A stretch of DNA of 64,000 bases, taken from Bacteroidales bacterium. GTDB lineage: Bacteria; Bacteroidota; Bacteroidia; Bacteroidales; JAFGUD01. The position numbers and the translations under genes are program-made. Of the stretch, positions 7,865 through 15,196 are shown piece after piece. The notes beneath the pieces were generated by a model. That model ran no database searches, had not been told where the DNA came from, and worked only from the letters and a program-made list of their open reading frames with translations. The stretch covers positions 1,584 to 65,583 of the forward strand of contig JAFGXO010000171.1 in the NCBI GenBank assembly GCA_016936595.1. Reading direction: 5' to 3'. Within the stretch, counting starts at the first letter, position 1. The number at the start of each line of letters is the position of its first letter.

Positions 7865-8989
7865 TTAAATTATTTTTTCAAGATAAGAACTTGTTCCGGT
7901 TTTTAATATTTCTTGGATTACTTTAGCCGTAACATCACCTATTCCGTTAATGCTTGCAATTTGTTTTGGTTGAAGAAATTGTATGTTTTGTTCTATTTTA
8001 GATATTTGATAAGCTGCGTAGCCATATGGATTTTTATGTCCTCGTAATTTTAACAAGTAATCTAAATGCTCAAGAATAACCACAACTAAATCATTTTTAG
8101 AAACAAAACGATAGTATAATTTAGGAGGAATTCGCTTTGGAATTTTAAGATTTGTTGCAATTTTATCAAACAAATAATGAGCAGATTGGTTATAATCTTG
8201 GTGAGCTTCGCCCCATTTACTATTATGTTCGTAAATAATATCAAACTGAGTTGTTAAATCGGAAAAATGTTTATTTATTACGTTCATAAAATAATCTTTT
8301 TGTCGCCCCGGTTTAAGTGTCATTGTTCCAAAAATTACAAAGTCAATACCTACCTCTTTTCCTCTCCGAAGAGTTTCTTCCACCATTTTAGGACTGTCTG
8401 TAATAAATGGGATTAACGGCATTAAAAACATACCAACCGAAATACCGTTTTGTTTAAGCTTTTTAATTAATGTAAATCGTTCAGAAGGGCTTGCTACACC
8501 AGGCTCAAAAATTTTGCTGATATTATCGCTTGCCGACGAAAAACTAAAGCTAACAATTGCTCTGCTTTGATTGTTTATTTTTTTAATGATGTCAATATCT
8601 CGCTCTACGAGAGTTGATTTTGTTAAAATATGTACGGGATATTTGTATTTGTACAAGAGTTCTAATGTTTTACGTGCAAGTTCATATTTTTTTTCTGCCG
8701 GTTGATACGAATCACTAACTCCACCGCCAAGCATCATAAAACTTCGGGGCATGGGTTTTCTCTTTCGTGCCGGATCTAATTCTTTTTGCAAAATTTCAAT
8801 TGCATTTGTTTTTATAGAAATATCTCTGCCAAAATCTCCTTCTACGTAATAACCTTCGGCTCTGCCATCACAATAGGCACAATTATGTGAACAGCCTCTA
8901 TATAAATTTAGCCCGTAATGTGTTAAAAACCAACTTTCAATTTTTTTATTTTTTCTTAGAATTGTTTTTGCTTGTGTTTCGGTTATCAT
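7865..8989 (-). CDS. Radical SAM protein (SPL/PA0069-like) with a C-terminal helix-hairpin-helix
   Basis: 374 aa. It has the CxxxCxxC cluster motif CSHNCAYCDG near the N-terminus and a C-terminal IASINGIGDVTAKVIQEIL HhH-like motif. Confidence 0.8.
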   Translation of the reverse strand: MITETQAKTILRKNKKIESWFLTHYGLNLYRGCSHNCAYCDGRAEGYYVEGDFGRDISIKTNAIEILQKELDPARKRKPMPRSFMMLGGGVSDSYQPAEKKYELARKTLELLYKYKYPVHILTKSTLVERDIDIIKKINNQSRAIVSFSFSSASDNISKIFEPGVASPSERFTLIKKLKQNGISVGMFLMPLIPFITDSPKMVEETLRRGKEVGIDFVIFGTMTLKPGRQKDYFMNVINKHFSDLTTQFDIIYEHNSKWGEAHQDYNQSAHYLFDKIATNLKIPKRIPPKLYYRFVSKNDLVVVILEHLDYLLKLRGHKNPYGYAAYQISKIEQNIQFLQPKQIASINGIGDVTAKVIQEILKTGTSSYLEKII

Positions 8990-8990
8990 C

Positions 8991-9052
8991 TGTTAGGGTT
9001 TTGAGAGTTTCAATTTTCGGGTTTCGGGTTTCGGGGTGCGGGTTTCGGGGTT
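8991..9052. repeat. G-tract intergenic element (TTAGGGTTTT...GGGTTTCGGGTTTCGGGGTGCGGGTTTCGGGG)
   Basis: Five G3-4 runs separated by 3-4-nt loops at 9019-9050, in an otherwise AT-rich spacer. It shares TTAGGGTTT, TTTCGGGTT and TTTCGGGGTG blocks with the element at 17181-17237. Confidence 0.75.
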
Positions 9053-9069
9053 CATATTTTTGTGTCATT

Positions 9070-9897
9070 TTAATAATCGTGTCTGTAGTAAATTCGGTTT
9101 TTGTATTTGTATTTATCAATTTTAAGAATATCCATAACTTTTAATGGTTCATTTTTAACTAAATTTCTGCAGGCTCTATATGCTATCCAATATGAATTTT
9201 TATTGCCGGAATCTGCTAATTTTTGCACAATTTTGTAAACTCTTTCTTTATCAATTCTTGCCCAATCACTTAAATTATTGCCAACAGACGAACGCGGATA
9301 ATCTTTTGATTCTGCAAATAAGTTTTTAATAACTTCAAAACAAAATTCAGGATTTTTTTTCAGCCAACTATTATCAGCAACGGGTCTGATAGATTCGCTT
9401 GCAAACCGCCTTGACATTGGATTATCTGAAGTAACTTGCTTTAAATACCATTTTTTCATTCTATCGGGAAATGTTTTTACAAGTTTACGAACAAAGCCGG
9501 CTGAGCATTCTCTTACTTCCCATTTTTCATCTGTTGCCGCTTGTTCAAAAATTGGTAAAACTTCTTCAATTTTTTTTGTTTCAACGCCATAAATTGAAAT
9601 TATCTGAACGCCAAAACTTCTTACAAATTGCTCAAATTGAATATTTGTATATAAATTAGAAGCAAATTCAAGCACATCTATATCATTTTGTTTAAGCATA
9701 GGATACATTTCAATACCCAATTTTTTAATTATACCATATCTACCGTACGAAATACGCTTTTTTTCAGGAATATCATTTCTAATTATTGAAATAAGTTTGT
9801 CTATTTCAGCTGCAACTTCATCAATAGTCAATACATTTATATGTTTAACTATAGTTTCTGCTAATTTTAAATGAGCTTGATTTATTAGTTGAAACAT
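9070..9897 (-). CDS. HEAT-repeat DNA alkylation repair-like protein (AlkC/AlkD superfamily)
   Basis: 275 aa, all-helical repeat character. DEKWEVRECSAGFVRKL and SSVGNNLSDWARIDKERV resemble conserved blocks of DNA-alkylation-repair (COG4335-type) proteins. The assignment is by memory of motifs only. Confidence 0.55.
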   Translation of the reverse strand: MFQLINQAHLKLAETIVKHINVLTIDEVAAEIDKLISIIRNDIPEKKRISYGRYGIIKKLGIEMYPMLKQNDIDVLEFASNLYTNIQFEQFVRSFGVQIISIYGVETKKIEEVLPIFEQAATDEKWEVRECSAGFVRKLVKTFPDRMKKWYLKQVTSDNPMSRRFASESIRPVADNSWLKKNPEFCFEVIKNLFAESKDYPRSSVGNNLSDWARIDKERVYKIVQKLADSGNKNSYWIAYRACRNLVKNEPLKVMDILKIDKYKYKNRIYYRHDY

Positions 9898-10018: not shown

Positions 10019-12505
10019 TTAATCGTTAACTCTCCAAGCCTTCCAAACATTTTGAATTGCGGGATTAATATTAACGTTAGGAGTTTGGGCTTTAAACCCA
10101 TTTTGAGGATTTAAAGTAGTGGTATTAACCTCATTACTTATTTGATCAAATAATTGACCATAAGTTAAATTACCCTTAGTATTTTGCAAAGTTTTTAACA
10201 AATAATAAGTAAATAAACCGTGCTGTTTATCAATATATTCTTGCGAAATTTCTTTTTCGGAAGAAGCAGCAAAAACCACCAAATTAGAACTAACACTATT
10301 AGCATTTGGCGGACGATATAAACCGGTTTTTGCATTAACTAACAACTGACCACTTTTACCACCACCACTAAAACAAGCATCAACAAAAACAAAAACTTTT
10401 TTGTTTCCATCAGGGCTAATTTGAGCATAAAAATCGCCTAATTTAATTCCAAAAGTTCCTATATAATCAGATTTTACACCAACAGGCACTAAATACGATT
10501 CACCTTGGTCGTCTTGAGTTCCATGACCACTATAATAAACATAAAATTCGCTTCCGTCTGGTTTACTTTTAATAAGTTTTGCAAAATTATCAATATAAAG
10601 TTTAATGTAAGTAGCATTTGCATCTTCGATATAATAAATATGATTAGTATTATCCGGAACGCCCAAAACATTAACGCAATACTGTTTAAAAATTGAAGCA
10701 TCATTTATTGAAAAAAGAATATCAACCATATCGGAGCCATGTTCAATATAATGAGAATTACCAATAATTAGAGCATACCGATTGTTATTTGCAGACCCTG
10801 CTTGAGGTATATTAACATCAACATCGCTCTGGCCAACAACAACTTGAGTGTTATCATCAATTGTTGGATCATTTGTTGGAGCGGGCACAATATTTACAGG
10901 ATCAAAGTTATTAACAACCACTATTGAATTAAAAACAACAGGAATACTTGCATCGTAAAAATATGTTTTATTGTTTACAGGATTAGTTATAGTTGCCTGA
11001 TAAATCTCTAATTTGTCTTCGGACGTTAAATTATATTTCATGTCGGTAAAAGTAAGTTTTGAAAAACTATCTTCAAAAATAGGAGCTTCGTTGATAGGAA
11101 CCGGCACGTACATTGGATTAAAATAAGTTAAAGAAATTTTAAAAACTTCGCTTTCCGAATCATAATCAAGTGTAGAAAGTTTAATATCTTTAATAAAAAT
11201 TGGTTCGCCAATTTGGCCGAAAAAAGTATCGGTAAGTTCAGTTATTTTTTGTTGACGAGTATGGATTGTTACCCTAAGTTGATAATCTTCAAGCTTTTCG
11301 TAGCGTCCTTTTTGTTGCCAATCATTAATTTTATTTTCGATGTAAGTAGTTGCTCTTTCGCGAATAGAAAAGTTCAATTTTACTAACCATAAATCTTTTT
11401 TCCCTGCCCCCCTGGATTTTGTATGTCCAACAACAGCCAAACCACCGTCAAAAGTTTTGGTAAATGCAGTAGCCTTTTCTTCTTCGGAACCACCAAAAGT
11501 ATTTTCCCACAACAAATTACCCATGTTATCTATTCCTAAAATCCAATAGTCCCAATCGCCTGCCCCCGAAGATTTTGTACTTCCGGCAATTAAATACCCG
11601 TCACCATTTGGAATAATGCTACAAAGTTCATCATTTTGTCCACCGCCATAAGTTTTATTCCAAATTTTATTTCCGTTATCATCAATTTTTATAAGCCAAC
11701 CATCAATCCAACCTGCTCCATACGATGAAGTATTCCCTGCAATAAGATAACCTCCGTCGTTAGCTTTTACAACATAAACAGCTTCGTCGCCACCACCGCC
11801 TTCTAATGAGAATTCCCATTTTACTGTGCCGACTGCGTCAATTTTTAAAGCATATAAATCAGCAAATCCATCAACTGTTGCTTGGGAATACCCAACAATT
11901 AAGTATCCATTATCCGAAGTTTGGATAATCTTATTTCCAAAATTCTTATATTGACTTTGATAGGATTTTGTCCATTTTTGAGATCCATTTTTGTCAGTTT
12001 TATACAAATTGATGGAATATTTGTCTTCTACAGAACTTGAATTACCAAGCACCATCATACCTCCATCATTTGTATTTATTACATCTAATCCATAATTACT
12101 CTCATATTGTCCAAAACTTTTATTCCACTGATTACCCAAAGAACTGCTAAATTTTAGTAAAGAGATAGTATTCCCATCAACAGAGTTTGAGAAACCAAGT
12201 GTAGCATATCCATTATCAGAAGTTTGTATAACCGAACAATAATTGGCAATAAAAACTCCTCTTGGCGAATTTTCATTTAAAAGATTTCCTTCAATATCGG
12301 TTTTTATTATCCATGGAAGCCATCCAACTCCAATCGATTGATTTCCACCAATAACTAATTCATAGTTTCTACTTTGAATAATTGATGTTGCCGATTGATT
12401 TTTTTTGTCGCCAAAAGTTTTATCCCACTCAATTTGAAGCGAACTTTGCCCCATAACAAAAAAGGAAGAGAACAATAAAAATAAAAAAAATGATAATTTT
12501 TTCAT
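10019..12505 (-). CDS. Secreted beta-propeller-repeat / caspase (peptidase C14) fusion protein
   Basis: 828 aa. Signal peptide MKKLSFFLFLLFSSFFVMGQ. About 7 degenerate ~45-aa repeats follow (xDGGYLIAGxTxSxGAGxxDxWLIKxDxxGNxxW). The C-terminal caspase fold has RYALIIGNSHY, the His dyad residue in YYSGHGTQ and the Cys in FVDACFSGG. Confidence 0.85.
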   Translation of the reverse strand: MKKLSFFLFLLFSSFFVMGQSSLQIEWDKTFGDKKNQSATSIIQSRNYELVIGGNQSIGVGWLPWIIKTDIEGNLLNENSPRGVFIANYCSVIQTSDNGYATLGFSNSVDGNTISLLKFSSSLGNQWNKSFGQYESNYGLDVINTNDGGMMVLGNSSSVEDKYSINLYKTDKNGSQKWTKSYQSQYKNFGNKIIQTSDNGYLIVGYSQATVDGFADLYALKIDAVGTVKWEFSLEGGGGDEAVYVVKANDGGYLIAGNTSSYGAGWIDGWLIKIDDNGNKIWNKTYGGGQNDELCSIIPNGDGYLIAGSTKSSGAGDWDYWILGIDNMGNLLWENTFGGSEEEKATAFTKTFDGGLAVVGHTKSRGAGKKDLWLVKLNFSIRERATTYIENKINDWQQKGRYEKLEDYQLRVTIHTRQQKITELTDTFFGQIGEPIFIKDIKLSTLDYDSESEVFKISLTYFNPMYVPVPINEAPIFEDSFSKLTFTDMKYNLTSEDKLEIYQATITNPVNNKTYFYDASIPVVFNSIVVVNNFDPVNIVPAPTNDPTIDDNTQVVVGQSDVDVNIPQAGSANNNRYALIIGNSHYIEHGSDMVDILFSINDASIFKQYCVNVLGVPDNTNHIYYIEDANATYIKLYIDNFAKLIKSKPDGSEFYVYYSGHGTQDDQGESYLVPVGVKSDYIGTFGIKLGDFYAQISPDGNKKVFVFVDACFSGGGKSGQLLVNAKTGLYRPPNANSVSSNLVVFAASSEKEISQEYIDKQHGLFTYYLLKTLQNTKGNLTYGQLFDQISNEVNTTTLNPQNGFKAQTPNVNINPAIQNVWKAWRVND

Positions 12506-12669
12506 AATAATATAATTTGAGTTTTTTGCATTTCATTAAACTTCAAAATTAAATAAAGTTTAATACTAAACCTGAAAAACAAACATCAAATTTGTTTTTA
12601 ACCATTATAAAAGTAATTTTCTGTTCATTTAGATAATTTTTATACTTTTACACAAATAATTTTTGATAC

Positions 12670-14157
12670 ATGAAAAAAACAGCATTTATATTTTTCGCAA
12701 CATTTTTACTACTAAATATCAGTTGTATCAATTCACAAAATACAATATTAACTCCACTAAAAAGTAATTTTAATTTTAAAAGTAGAGAAGTAAAAAGCAC
12801 ATTGATAATAAATCAAACATTTTTAGGAAACTGGGAGCGAAATTATTACGGCAACGAAGCTCCAGATAATTTAAACATAAACTGGACATGTTTGCTCGGA
12901 ACGGGACAAACCAGAGTTGGGGCAAATTTAGTTAAATGGTCGGGAGCCGGGTGGACAGGACAACCTCTTATGGTGAAATTAAACAATGAATTGTTTATTA
13001 TTCAAGGTGCTTATGATCATCACTTGAAAAAAATTAGAGTTTCGGACGGAAAGGTTGTTGACCAGTATGAATATGACGACGTTATTAAAGGCACGGCATC
13101 AATATGGCAAAAAGTTGATGAAAACAATAATTTTGTAGATTTTTTAATTTTACAAGGAAGCCGAAAAGGATTACAATATAGCTTAAATTCCCCTATTGTG
13201 CCAAGTTACAGAGCTGTAGCTTTTTCTAATATGCAAGATGTTTGGAAATATAACAGCATAAAAATGAGATCGTACAGTAGAGACGTTGACGCATCGACTG
13301 TAATAATTAACGACACAGCGTACTTAGGCTTAGAAAACGGATTATTTATTGTTTTTAGCCCCGATCCAAAAGATGCCCAAATTATTGATGGGATTTTACA
13401 GCCTCTTATTTACGATGTTGACACATTATTTTATCCATCTGATGCAAATACCCATGGGGGAAATCTTGTTACGGAAGCTTCGCCTACGTATATGAACGGA
13501 AAAATTTACATTAGTTCAGGAGCCGGTCACGTTTTTGCCTACAATATGAAAACTAAAAATATTGATTGGGTTTTTGATACTGGTTCTGATATGGACGGTT
13601 CTCCCGTAGTAACAAACGACGGTTGCCTTATTATTACCATTGAAAAAGAATACATCAGCGGACAAGGAGGAGTGATGAAATTAAACCCCAATTTACCACC
13701 CAATAACGCTGTAGTTTGGTTTTTTCCAACAAAAAACAAACATTTTGCTTTATGGTACGGTGGTGTTATTGGATCGGTAGGAATAAGTGATTCTTACAGC
13801 TCAACTGACAATCTTGCAGTTTTTATTGCAATCGACAGCTTTTTATACGTAGTAAAACACGACGAAATTGACAATAACATCTTAGTTTTTGGTCCGATGA
13901 AAAAGTTCCAATATTCAACCCCAAAATTAGTTTTCAAATACCAAACAGGCCCTTCAATTTCAACACCTATTATTGTTGGGAATAAAATTATTGCAGCAAC
14001 TTACAATGGCGTATATCTTTTTGAATATGACGAAAATTTAAATTTTAAACTTCTATCTCATCAAGATTTAGGCTCATTTGAAGCTACTCCTTTTGTTTGG
14101 AACAAAAAAATATATGTAGCAGGCAGAGACGGTTTATTATATTGTTTTGGTAATTAA
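12670..14157 (+). CDS. Secreted PQQ-like (BamB-like) beta-propeller repeat protein
   Basis: 495 aa with a signal peptide. It has repeated G-K-I/V-Y-hydrophobic...G.hhAh....G...W blades (for example GKIYISSGAGHVFAYNMKTKNIDWVF and KKIYVAGRDGLLYCF). Confidence 0.7.
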   Translation: MKKTAFIFFATFLLLNISCINSQNTILTPLKSNFNFKSREVKSTLIINQTFLGNWERNYYGNEAPDNLNINWTCLLGTGQTRVGANLVKWSGAGWTGQPLMVKLNNELFIIQGAYDHHLKKIRVSDGKVVDQYEYDDVIKGTASIWQKVDENNNFVDFLILQGSRKGLQYSLNSPIVPSYRAVAFSNMQDVWKYNSIKMRSYSRDVDASTVIINDTAYLGLENGLFIVFSPDPKDAQIIDGILQPLIYDVDTLFYPSDANTHGGNLVTEASPTYMNGKIYISSGAGHVFAYNMKTKNIDWVFDTGSDMDGSPVVTNDGCLIITIEKEYISGQGGVMKLNPNLPPNNAVVWFFPTKNKHFALWYGGVIGSVGISDSYSSTDNLAVFIAIDSFLYVVKHDEIDNNILVFGPMKKFQYSTPKLVFKYQTGPSISTPIIVGNKIIAATYNGVYLFEYDENLNFKLLSHQDLGSFEATPFVWNKKIYVAGRDGLLYCFGN

Positions 14158-14161
14158 AATT

Positions 14162-15196
14162 TTACAACTTTTTAATATCATCAACAGATAAGCCTGTTTC
14201 TTTAGATATTTCTTCTACTGGTGTCCCTACTTGTAACATCATTTTTGCCATTTTATTTTGAAATGTATGCTTTTCGTGTTCAGCGTTTTCTTTCTCTTGT
14301 AATGCTTTTTCTTTTTCCTGTTGAGCTTTTTCTTTTTCCTGTTGAGCTTTTTCTTTTTCCTGTTGAGCTTTTTCTTTTTCCTGTTGAGCTTTTTGAACTT
14401 CTGTTATCGCCTTTTCTCTTGCTTTCAAAGCCTCTTCTTCTTTCTTTTGAGCCTCCTTCATTTTTTTTATAGCATCATCAATAGCAGAGCGTTCTATTCT
14501 TATTCTATCCCAATAATTATCATAATAGTCCAACTCGTTTTTTGAAAAAGCTGATACTTGCAAATGTTCCAAAGCTTCTTTTATTTCTTCGTCTGCATTA
14601 AAATCTTCATCAACATTGATAGTATTTTCATTTATCTCGGTTAAAAAACGCAACCACAAATTAGTTATTTTCTTTTCTGTAAATGATTTTGGTGTAAACT
14701 TTGGTAGTTCAATAAATATCAATTCAATACCATCAATTACTTCATTAGGAATTTCTTTATGAGCTAATTTATAATGATGATAAAATTTATCTTTATATTT
14801 TTCCTCTGTAAGATAAATATCATCAACTAAACTAAGCCCATAAACGGGCAGTAATTTATCGTATTTACCTCCTCTATCTAACTGTTTTACATACGCTTTA
14901 CCCGAATTAAAAAGCATACGACTCTTAAATGAATTAGTCCAATACATTTGCATTTCCACAATAAACTGTCGGCCAAAATTGTCTGTGCACTTTACATCTA
15001 CCACTGAATGTTTTAATTCGGGAATTTCAGGCAATAACGCAGGATCTTGATAAATTAAACTTTCAATATACTGGTCATCATTTAATGGCAATAGCGAATT
15101 TAAAAAACTTTTCATTATGTTGGCATTCTGACCAAATATTTTACGAAAAGTTAAATCATTTTTTGGATCTAAATATTTTATATTACGAAAGTCCAT
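14162..15196 (-). CDS. Rpn-family recombination-promoting nuclease / PD-(D/E)XK putative transposase with a C-terminal heptad-repeat tail
   Basis: 344 aa. The N-terminus LDPKNDLTFRKIFGQ and the nuclease core VVDVKCTDNFGRQFIVEMQ are typical of the PDDEXK_2/Rpn family. The C-terminus contains (EKAQQEK)x4. Confidence 0.8.
   Translation of the reverse strand: MDFRNIKYLDPKNDLTFRKIFGQNANIMKSFLNSLLPLNDDQYIESLIYQDPALLPEIPELKHSVVDVKCTDNFGRQFIVEMQMYWTNSFKSRMLFNSGKAYVKQLDRGGKYDKLLPVYGLSLVDDIYLTEEKYKDKFYHHYKLAHKEIPNEVIDGIELIFIELPKFTPKSFTEKKITNLWLRFLTEINENTINVDEDFNADEEIKEALEHLQVSAFSKNELDYYDNYWDRIRIERSAIDDAIKKMKEAQKKEEEALKAREKAITEVQKAQQEKEKAQQEKEKAQQEKEKAQQEKEKALQEKENAEHEKHTFQNKMAKMMLQVGTPVEEISKETGLSVDDIKKL
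14305..14388. repeat. Perfect 21-bp tandem repeat x4 (GCTTTTTCTTTTTCCTGTTGA) inside the Rpn-like CDS
   Basis: Four identical contiguous copies were read directly (14305-14325, -14346, -14367, -14388), plus degenerate flanking copies. They are in frame, 7 codons per unit. Confidence 0.9.

Follow-up and report, generated by a model that had tools for sequence, protein, structure and literature searches.

The gene and its product

The DNA analysed here is a stretch of 64,000 nucleotides (the window) from a Bacteroidales bacterium (GenBank assembly GCA_016936595.1, contig JAFGXO010000171.1, positions 1,584 to 65,583 of the forward strand), and the gene in question lies on its minus strand between positions 10019 and 12505, where it encodes a protein of 828 amino acids (aa) in which a signal peptide, a beta-propeller, a conserved middle module and a C-terminal domain of peptidase family C14 follow one another. 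The parts of the gene, in positions of the window and with coordinates that were re-checked through the translation, are the following.

10019..12505, minus strand: whole open reading frame (ORF), 828 aa plus stop, ATG start; exported protein of the layout propeller - middle module - C14 peptidase
12449..12505, minus strand: signal peptide of the Sec / signal peptidase I type, MKKLSFFLFLLFSSFFVMG, residues 1-19 (from the sequence; helix 2-17 in the model)
11369..12436, minus strand: seven-bladed beta-propeller, residues 24-379, with repeats of the CylK / DUF5122-related type; presumed target-binding module
10916..11368, minus strand: middle module, conserved, residues 380-530, made of three helices and a beta unit of six strands; uncharacterised domain
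10838..10915, minus strand: flexible, poorly conserved linker, residues 531-556; the stretch of low predicted local distance difference test score (pLDDT), residues 552-559, extends 3 residues beyond it
10805..10837, minus strand: motif VGxSDVDxNIP, residues 557-567, shared throughout the clade, at the point where the caspase domain begins
10022..10780, minus strand: Peptidase_C14 domain (caspase/hemoglobinase fold), residues 576-828, six strands and five helices
10700..10702, minus strand: codon of Asp602 (N-D-A), invariant, aligned with Asp365 of the MALT1 S1 pocket
10523..10525, minus strand: codon of the catalytic His661 (G-H-G), right after strand 653-659
10379..10381, minus strand: codon of Asp709, two residues before the catalytic Cys, invariant, aligned with MALT1 Asp462 and the D-x-C of metacaspases
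10373..10375, minus strand: codon of the catalytic Cys711 (D-A-C-F-S-G), right after strand 703-709
10289..10369, minus strand: disordered loop, residues 713-739, right after Cys711, with K717, K726 and R732 (pLDDT below 50; alignment)
12544..12551, minus strand: putative -7 promoter box of the Bacteroidota type, TAATTTTG, situated 38 nt before the start codon (consensus match only)

An architecture of four parts had been proposed in an earlier, sequence-only reading of this DNA, and it is borne out by the translation of the ORF, by Pfam and by a full-length AlphaFold2 model, computed from an input alignment of 75 sequences (mean pLDDT 87.3; predicted template modelling score, pTM, 0.65), where helices at residues 381-442 lead into a beta unit at 445-530 and an alpha/beta domain spans residues 576-828.

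Catalytic domain and predicted specificity

The C-terminal domain matches the Pfam model Peptidase_C14 (PF00656) over residues 576-812 with 62.2 bits, against a cutoff of 21.4, and carries the motifs YYSGHG, with His661, and DACFSGG, with Cys711, both of which are invariant in 64 of the 64 caspase-bearing sequences of alignment A1. In alignment A3, residues D602, H661, D709 and C711 do not vary, in sets of 133 and 69 distant representatives they are conserved to at least 90%, and the motifs GHG and DAC[FY][ST]G are kept in each of the 80 genomic loci examined (see below). In the AlphaFold2 model, His661 and Cys711 stand at the ends of strands 653-659 and 703-709, respectively, where the caspase-hemoglobinase fold canonically has them, and Foldseek searches against the PDB match the domain to caspase-9, caspase-8, MALT1 and AtMC9 (E values of 6e-10 to 3e-8, target template modelling (TM) scores of 0.5-0.74). 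For a profile built from 20 sequences of the caspase domain, the best alignments were those with the MALT1 paracaspase (E 2.9e-7) and yeast metacaspase-1; in the alignment with MALT1, GHG falls on MALT1 His415, D-A-C on Asp462-x-Cys464, and Asp602 (N-D-A) on Asp365. The complete C14 fold and intact His/Cys dyad claimed in the sequence-only reading are upheld by the Pfam score, by the alignment of the dyad with MALT1 H415 and C464 and by its canonical position in the model, so that profile score, dyad placement and structural similarity agree in assigning the protein to peptidase family C14. The NCBIfam model caspase_w_EACC1 (NF047832) is reached with 46 bits against a cutoff of 140, and the protein is thus not of the EACC1-associated type.

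Counting back from H415 along the MALT1 sequence gives the number Asp365; together with Asp462, this residue is one of the three acidic residues that MALT1 has in its S1 pocket. Since the invariant Asp602 and Asp709 fall on these positions, the enzyme is predicted to accept Arg or Lys, not Asp, at P1, which would fit the C14B type (metacaspases, paracaspases and orthocaspases) and not the true caspases, C14A. Cleavage after Arg or Lys, owing to an acidic pocket, is described for all characterised C14 enzymes other than true caspases (PMC5756287), and the name caspase should not be taken to imply Asp specificity in a protein with S1 residues that point to a basic P1. The loop at residues 713-739, directly after the catalytic Cys, is disordered in the model (pLDDT below 50), and the family consensus is rich in Arg and Lys at this place; the loop is a candidate autoprocessing linker of the p20/p10 type.

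The middle module

The region between propeller and caspase domain had been described as a linker of about 180 aa; it consists instead of a folded, conserved domain of about 150 aa and a flexible linker of about 45 aa. Modelled alone, the module reaches a pLDDT of about 95 over its first 150 residues, which form three helices and six strands. Alignments of 75, 133 and 69 sequences all show its residues W396, E403 and R411 as invariant; Y448 and D449 are invariant in the first of these and reach at least 90% conservation in the second and third. Foldseek returned nothing significant for the module, the lowest E values being 0.16 in the PDB, with TM below 0.2, and 0.09 in BFVD, no Pfam model matched it at E 0.1, and no description of it was found in the literature (open-access papers and preprints).

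An exhaustive HMMER search of 1.84 billion representatives recovered the module in 621 clusters at 50% identity, and in 132 of the 150 best representatives the caspase domain follows it directly; the remaining 18 are mostly truncated fragments, about four of them having a different C-terminal tail. Because the module precedes a caspase domain in 132 of 150 cases, it appears to be an accessory domain essentially dedicated to the clade of exported Bacteroidota caspases to which the window protein belongs. In four representatives (P0328, P0339, P0342 and P0359) the module is followed by 108-211 non-caspase residues, which might show other couplings. The motif VGxSDVDxNIP is also present in members of the clade that lack the middle module, such as a 340-aa protein of Segatella copri (L084).

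The beta-propeller

Seven repeat units of 46-52 aa can be delimited in the N-terminal half of the protein (residues 27-77, 78-127, 128-178, 179-230, 231-282, 283-333 and 334-379). With a profile made of repeats 5 and 6 alone, repeats 1, 4 and 7 score 17-27 bits and repeat 3 scores 8 bits, the top score in 200 shuffles of the region being 5.7 bits; repeat 2, at 2.5 bits, is too degenerate to be detected in this way. In the AlphaFold2 model, residues 24-378 form 28 strands, that is, seven blades of four strands each, and the region is related to the propeller of CylK both in sequence (E 1.6e-11) and in fold (Foldseek against the PDB, E 1e-18), the fold matching also the seven-bladed sugar-binding lectins PHL and PLL. 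Some homologues of the propeller reach DUF5122 repeats, the query itself having no match to the Pfam DUF5122 model, and homologues occur in surface proteins with PKD, PGF-CTERM or type IX secretion system (T9SS) tails. The earlier suggestion that the repeats form a propeller is therefore confirmed by the model, which sets the number of blades at seven, and by the match to CylK, and the seven repeats, five of which exceed the shuffle controls, together with the 28 strands and the homology to solved CylK structures, place the domain in the CylK / DUF5122-related seven-bladed class.

The C-terminal propeller of CylK (PDB 7fh7 and 7ron) and the propellers of the DUF5122 or 'delta-60' repeat type share with the window protein the repeat motif …DGG…G.T.S…G..D.W..K.D..G…W, and the propeller of CylK likewise has seven blades; CylK is, however, a cytoplasmic Friedel-Crafts alkylating enzyme with an N-terminal calcium-binding domain, and nothing in the window protein hints at such chemistry.

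Export signal and localization

The N-terminus, MKKLSFFLFLLFSSFFVMG followed by QSS, consists of a basic n-region and a hydrophobic core next to which stands Gln, and contains no Cys; the signal peptide named in the sequence-only reading is accordingly present and of the non-lipoprotein type. Cys is absent from residues 1-89, so that the protein has no lipobox of a bacterial lipoprotein, and no second long hydrophobic run was found elsewhere in the 828 aa. Cleavage is predicted to occur before Gln20, which would become the new N-terminus. Signal peptidase I substrates of Bacteroidota prefer an N-terminal Gln, which is turned into pyroglutamate. The family fits this preference, since 132 of its 154 members with a signal-like N-terminus have Gln next to the hydrophobic region, against a background Gln frequency of 4%.

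Export of the protein by the Sec pathway is well supported. A T9SS C-terminal sorting domain (Por_Secre_tail / TIGR04183) was not found with Pfam and NCBIfam at E values up to 0.1, and the caspase fold reaches the last residue, 828, in the model, which leaves no room for such a domain. Because the cell is that of a diderm member of the Bacteroidota and the protein has neither a T9SS domain nor a lipobox, its default location is most likely the periplasm or the lumen of outer-membrane vesicles. The description of the protein as secreted therefore holds as regards Sec export and is not supported as regards release from the cell, and extracellular substrate capture, which had been derived from it, is not borne out, given that no route to the surface by lipobox or T9SS was found.

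Family and phyletic distribution

Close orthologues over the full length form 11 clusters (P0001-P0011) with 51-93% identity and 803-831 aa, one of them named 'caspase family protein [Bacteroidales bacterium]'. When the C-terminal 450 aa were used as the query, more than 1,400 proteins matched with 97-100% coverage and 33-40% identity and with differing N-terminal regions; the full-length orthologues did not reappear among these matches. A scan of species-representative genomes with the profile of alignment A3 yielded at least 563 confirmed loci of the caspase clade, of which 80, a set separate from the close orthologues and from the window's own genome, were examined. Among the matches listed, the clade is confined to Bacteroidota, where it extends over many families of Bacteroidales (including Segatella, Alistipes, Phocaeicola and Muribaculaceae), Flavobacteriales, Cytophagales and Saprospiraceae. 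The 80 loci contain 77 ORFs with an intact 5' end, and a crude heuristic detected a signal peptide in 69 of them; some of the signals are of the lipoprotein type. The N-terminal domains carried on the same cassette include WG repeats, WD40 propellers, tetratricopeptide repeats (TPR), CARDB, F5/8-C, LamG and DUF7477, and in a minimal form, about 480 aa long, the signal peptide is followed by middle module and caspase alone, with no targeting domain.

The layout propeller - middle module - caspase itself is found also in a Saprospiraceae metagenome-assembled genome (L027) and in Xanthovirga aplysinae of the Cytophagales (L082), with 24-33% identity in the propeller, 34% in the middle module and 34-40% in the caspase domain. 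The Bacteroidota-wide family is built of a signal peptide, a variable repeat domain, usually the middle module, and then the caspase domain. The fusion is thus not singular but represents one of the variants within a very large and modular group of caspase homologues that Bacteroidota export, and the gene is an ordinary member of this family that is not exceptional within it. No characterised member with a known substrate was found in open-access papers and preprints.

In two of the related loci a second exported caspase paralogue lies close to the family member, namely a DUF7477 and C14 protein of 1,064 aa (L003, 6735-9929) and a Glucodextran_B and C14 protein of 627 aa (L009, 6312-8195), which suggests local paralogue arrays. 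No paralogue of the caspase gene was found within the window.

Genomic neighbourhood

The intergenic region that holds the putative -7 box TAATTTTG is 164 bp long, has a GC content of 17% and separates the caspase gene from a divergent neighbour (12670-14157, plus strand). This gene encodes a 495-aa beta-propeller of the pyrroloquinoline quinone (PQQ)-like type with a lipoprotein-type signal, …LLLNISC followed by INSQ, in which the Cys ends the hydrophobic stretch. A scan for sigma-70 promoters and terminators told little, with 27 sites where 21.9 were expected and 0 terminators, and Rfam found no RNA families in the window.

The neighbour belongs to a lipoprotein family that is widespread and tightly conserved in Bacteroidota (1,482 homologues, many with at least 50% identity), some members of which are labelled BamB by the Joint Genome Institute (JGI); the neighbour itself scores far below the cutoffs of the BamB equivalogs (about 21 bits against 285-423). 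Orthologues of the lipoprotein and of the caspase stand side by side in L001/L002 (73% identity of the caspase) and L007/L008 (58%) and are 6 kb apart in L003 (56%), while in L005 (52%) the lipoprotein is absent from the 8 kb upstream of the caspase orthologue. In three other genomes, where the lipoprotein is 69%, 55% and 54% identical, no caspase gene occurs within 6 kb of it, which identifies the pairing as lineage-specific synteny. A two-gene system with the divergent propeller was therefore rejected, the neighbour being a ubiquitous BamB-like lipoprotein that adjoins the caspase gene in close relatives only; its presence and its divergent orientation are as had been described.

A conserved partner or immunity gene was also sought and rejected, since an all-against-all comparison of unannotated neighbours gave a single recurrent exported protein that does not occur in the window. 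This protein (347 aa in L003, 4040-5083, L003_347; 342 aa in L005, 6730-7758, L005_342; 41% identity) has no Pfam match and is encoded near the propeller-caspase orthologue in both loci.

Between the PQQ-like gene and a tRNA U5-methyltransferase gene lies a transposase-like gene of the PD-(D/E)XK_2 type (PDDEXK_2; 14162-15196, minus strand, 136 bits); because the PQQ-like and methyltransferase genes are directly adjacent in L007, the PDDEXK_2 gene looks like an insertion. A tandem repeat of 21 bp (14271-14417, 5.9 copies, 89% matches) encodes the C-terminal coiled coil, (EKAQQEK)n, of its product. On the other side of the caspase gene, two neighbouring genes encode a protein with HEAT repeats that belongs to the DNA alkylation repair family (9070-9897, minus strand) and a radical SAM protein (7865-8989, minus strand). 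The latter ends in a helix-hairpin-helix domain, shows a weak match of the spore-photoproduct-lyase type and might serve in DNA repair, the genome being that of a non-sporulating member of the Bacteroidota. The intergenic space between these two genes contains a tandem repeat, TTTCGGG x 5.6 (9015-9053; 7 bp or 14 bp unit).

Comparison with known systems

The best profile and fold matches, MALT1 and the type I metacaspases (yeast Yca1, TbMCA2; C14B), share with the window protein the motifs GHG and D-x-C, acidic residues that align at equivalent S1 positions, a single chain that comprises the full p20 and p10-like fold, and a flexible loop after the catalytic Cys, at an identity of about 16% in structural alignment. 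These enzymes are cytoplasmic and eukaryotic, with death, immunoglobulin (Ig) or Pro-rich accessory domains, whereas the window protein carries a Sec signal, a propeller and an unrelated middle module. Exported clan CD proteases with Arg/Lys specificity are known from Bacteroidota and Firmicutes in the gingipains (C25) and in clostripain, PmC11 and fragipain (C11); they have the caspase-hemoglobinase fold in common with the window protein, and exported clan CD enzymes, which PMC3482391 also mentions, are normal in the phylum. The gingipains, however, have T9SS C-terminal and adhesin domains, and the C25 and C11 enzymes, which do not belong to C14, have no sequence-level similarity to the window protein.

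The cyanobacterial orthocaspases, such as MaOC1, and other prokaryotic metacaspase-like proteins are C14 enzymes with the His/Cys dyad, a basic P1 where tested and frequent fusions to WD40, TPR and other interaction domains (PMC3501461, PMC5756287). Characterised orthocaspases reside in the cytoplasm and begin with the caspase domain, whereas in the clade described here it always stands at the C-terminus, after a clade-specific module and the SDVDxNIP motif. In a survey of prokaryotic caspase homologues from 2012, N-terminal helices were regarded as probable signal peptides and an extracellular location was inferred for some of the proteins (PMC3501461). Exported prokaryotic caspase homologues with repeat domains have thus been noted previously (PMC3501461, PMC3482391); what is new here is the middle domain and a clade for which no characterised member was found.

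Interpretation

The data are best explained, with a probability that we put at roughly 0.6, by a latent, Sec-exported C14 endopeptidase with specificity for Arg or Lys, in which the propeller serves as an interchangeable targeting module and the middle domain as a clade-specific accessory of the protease. According to this explanation, the Sec pathway would carry the protein over the inner membrane and signal peptidase I would cut it before Gln20; having no lipid anchor and no T9SS signal, the mature protein would most likely be retained in the periplasm or in outer-membrane vesicles. The constancy of the C-terminal 450 aa under varied N-terminal repeat domains is the reason for reading the propeller as a swappable module, which may dock the enzyme on a protein or glycan of the envelope, while middle module and caspase domain would form the constant enzymatic cassette. 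An acidic S1 pocket made of Asp602 and Asp709 would direct cleavage to positions after Arg or Lys, and self-cleavage in the basic, disordered loop after Cys711 would probably activate the enzyme, as in metacaspases and orthocaspases. The middle module, as an accessory of the clade, may regulate the enzyme, serve as a prodomain or dock the substrate.

Several points weigh against this explanation. No characterised member of the clade was found in the open-access papers and preprints, and at the window and the related loci no conserved neighbour was found that would point to a substrate. The third acidic S1 residue of MALT1, E500, has no confident counterpart in the alignment. The propeller belongs to no named ligand-binding family that Pfam detects at E values up to 10, and the arrangement of the domains relative to one another is uncertain in the AlphaFold2 model (pTM 0.65).

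The architecture superficially recalls that of the exported toxins of the Tox-Caspase type, which have been proposed in silico to harm competitor bacteria or host cells with a C-terminal caspase-like domain and are described as proteins with beta-propeller, TPR or Sel1 repeats, exported by Sec and the type II secretion system, Bacteroidetes included (Zhang et al. 2012, PMC3482391); as in those proteins, a signal peptide is followed by repeats and the caspase-like domain is C-terminal-most. In the window clade, however, the polymorphism is reversed, the C-terminal cassette being constant and the N-terminus variable. A conserved downstream immunity gene was not found in the window or in 8 related loci, the downstream genes differing from locus to locus, and Pfam and NCBIfam detected no rearrangement hotspot (RHS), PAAR, type VI or type VII secretion system, Photorhabdus virulence cassette (PVC) or T9SS trafficking elements. 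Single-copy orthologues that are syntenic at 56-93% identity in housekeeping contexts indicate vertical inheritance, and the constant C-terminus and the lack of a downstream immunity gene set the protein apart from the polymorphic toxins, so that a toxin is a rather improbable interpretation. A protease that acts outside the cell or on its surface and captures substrates for nutrient acquisition seems unlikely as well, even though Bacteroidetes metacaspases have been speculated to degrade extracellular protein (PMC4933709). The homologues of the propeller are typical of cell-surface proteins and its fold is like that of sugar-binding lectin propellers, which would suit such a role; the protein, however, has neither a T9SS C-terminal domain nor a lipoprotein signal, the marks of the two usual routes to the Bacteroidota surface, its caspase domain extends to the final residue, and the gene lies outside any SusC/D-type utilisation locus. 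To our knowledge, moreover, the characterised C14 enzymes are site-specific processors and not bulk digestive proteases.

Variable, sensor-like repeats on a constant protease cassette also resemble bacterial conflict systems (PMC7159879), and the cassette might accordingly be the effector of a Bacteroidota-specific extracytoplasmic surveillance, in which swappable repeats would sense foreign or damaged parts of the envelope, the middle domain would relay the signal, and the periplasmic Arg/Lys caspase thus switched on would trigger dormancy or death. A generic PADLOC 'caspase' match (42 bits), the sole match in the defence-system library, and the clustering of paralogous exported caspases in L003 and L009 are in line with this idea, which would, if true, make the proteins a compartment-shifted analogue of the cytoplasmic sensor-caspase immune proteins. 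Neither a nucleoside triphosphatase (NTPase) nor a gasdermin, EACC1 or other effector partner is encoded at the loci, however, caspase_w_EACC1 is far from its cutoff (46 against 140 bits), the contexts are those of housekeeping genes and not of defence islands, and the sole mobile-element-like gene nearby, the PDDEXK_2 insertion, is unrelated to the caspase gene; a surveillance effector that kills or arrests the cell, like the relay as a whole, is therefore to be given little credence. Clan CD includes transpeptidases, and a transpeptidase or ligase, like PorU, legumain or GPI8, or a non-catalytic scaffold would be a non-hydrolytic alternative. The NCBIfam match to the PorU N-terminus is weak (16.8 bits) and covers only the signal peptide (residues 1-49), similarity to C25 and C13 is limited to the common fold, the best matches being members of C14, and the strict conservation of dyad and S1 residues speaks against a pseudo-enzyme, all of which makes this alternative very improbable.

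The preferred explanation, a latent exported Arg/Lys endopeptidase with exchangeable targeting, would apply to a large exported clade (at least 563 loci, with 621 clusters of the middle module) in which catalytic and S1 residues are intact and a variable binding domain is combined with a constant cassette. Bacterial caspase homologues have mostly been discussed as cytoplasmic effectors of cell death or defence, whereas this clade is exported with hardly an exception, and it extends to the human-gut genera Segatella, Alistipes and Phocaeicola. Knowledge of the role of the domain of about 150 aa and of the substrates of the enzymes would open an unexplored part of envelope proteolysis in the Bacteroidota.

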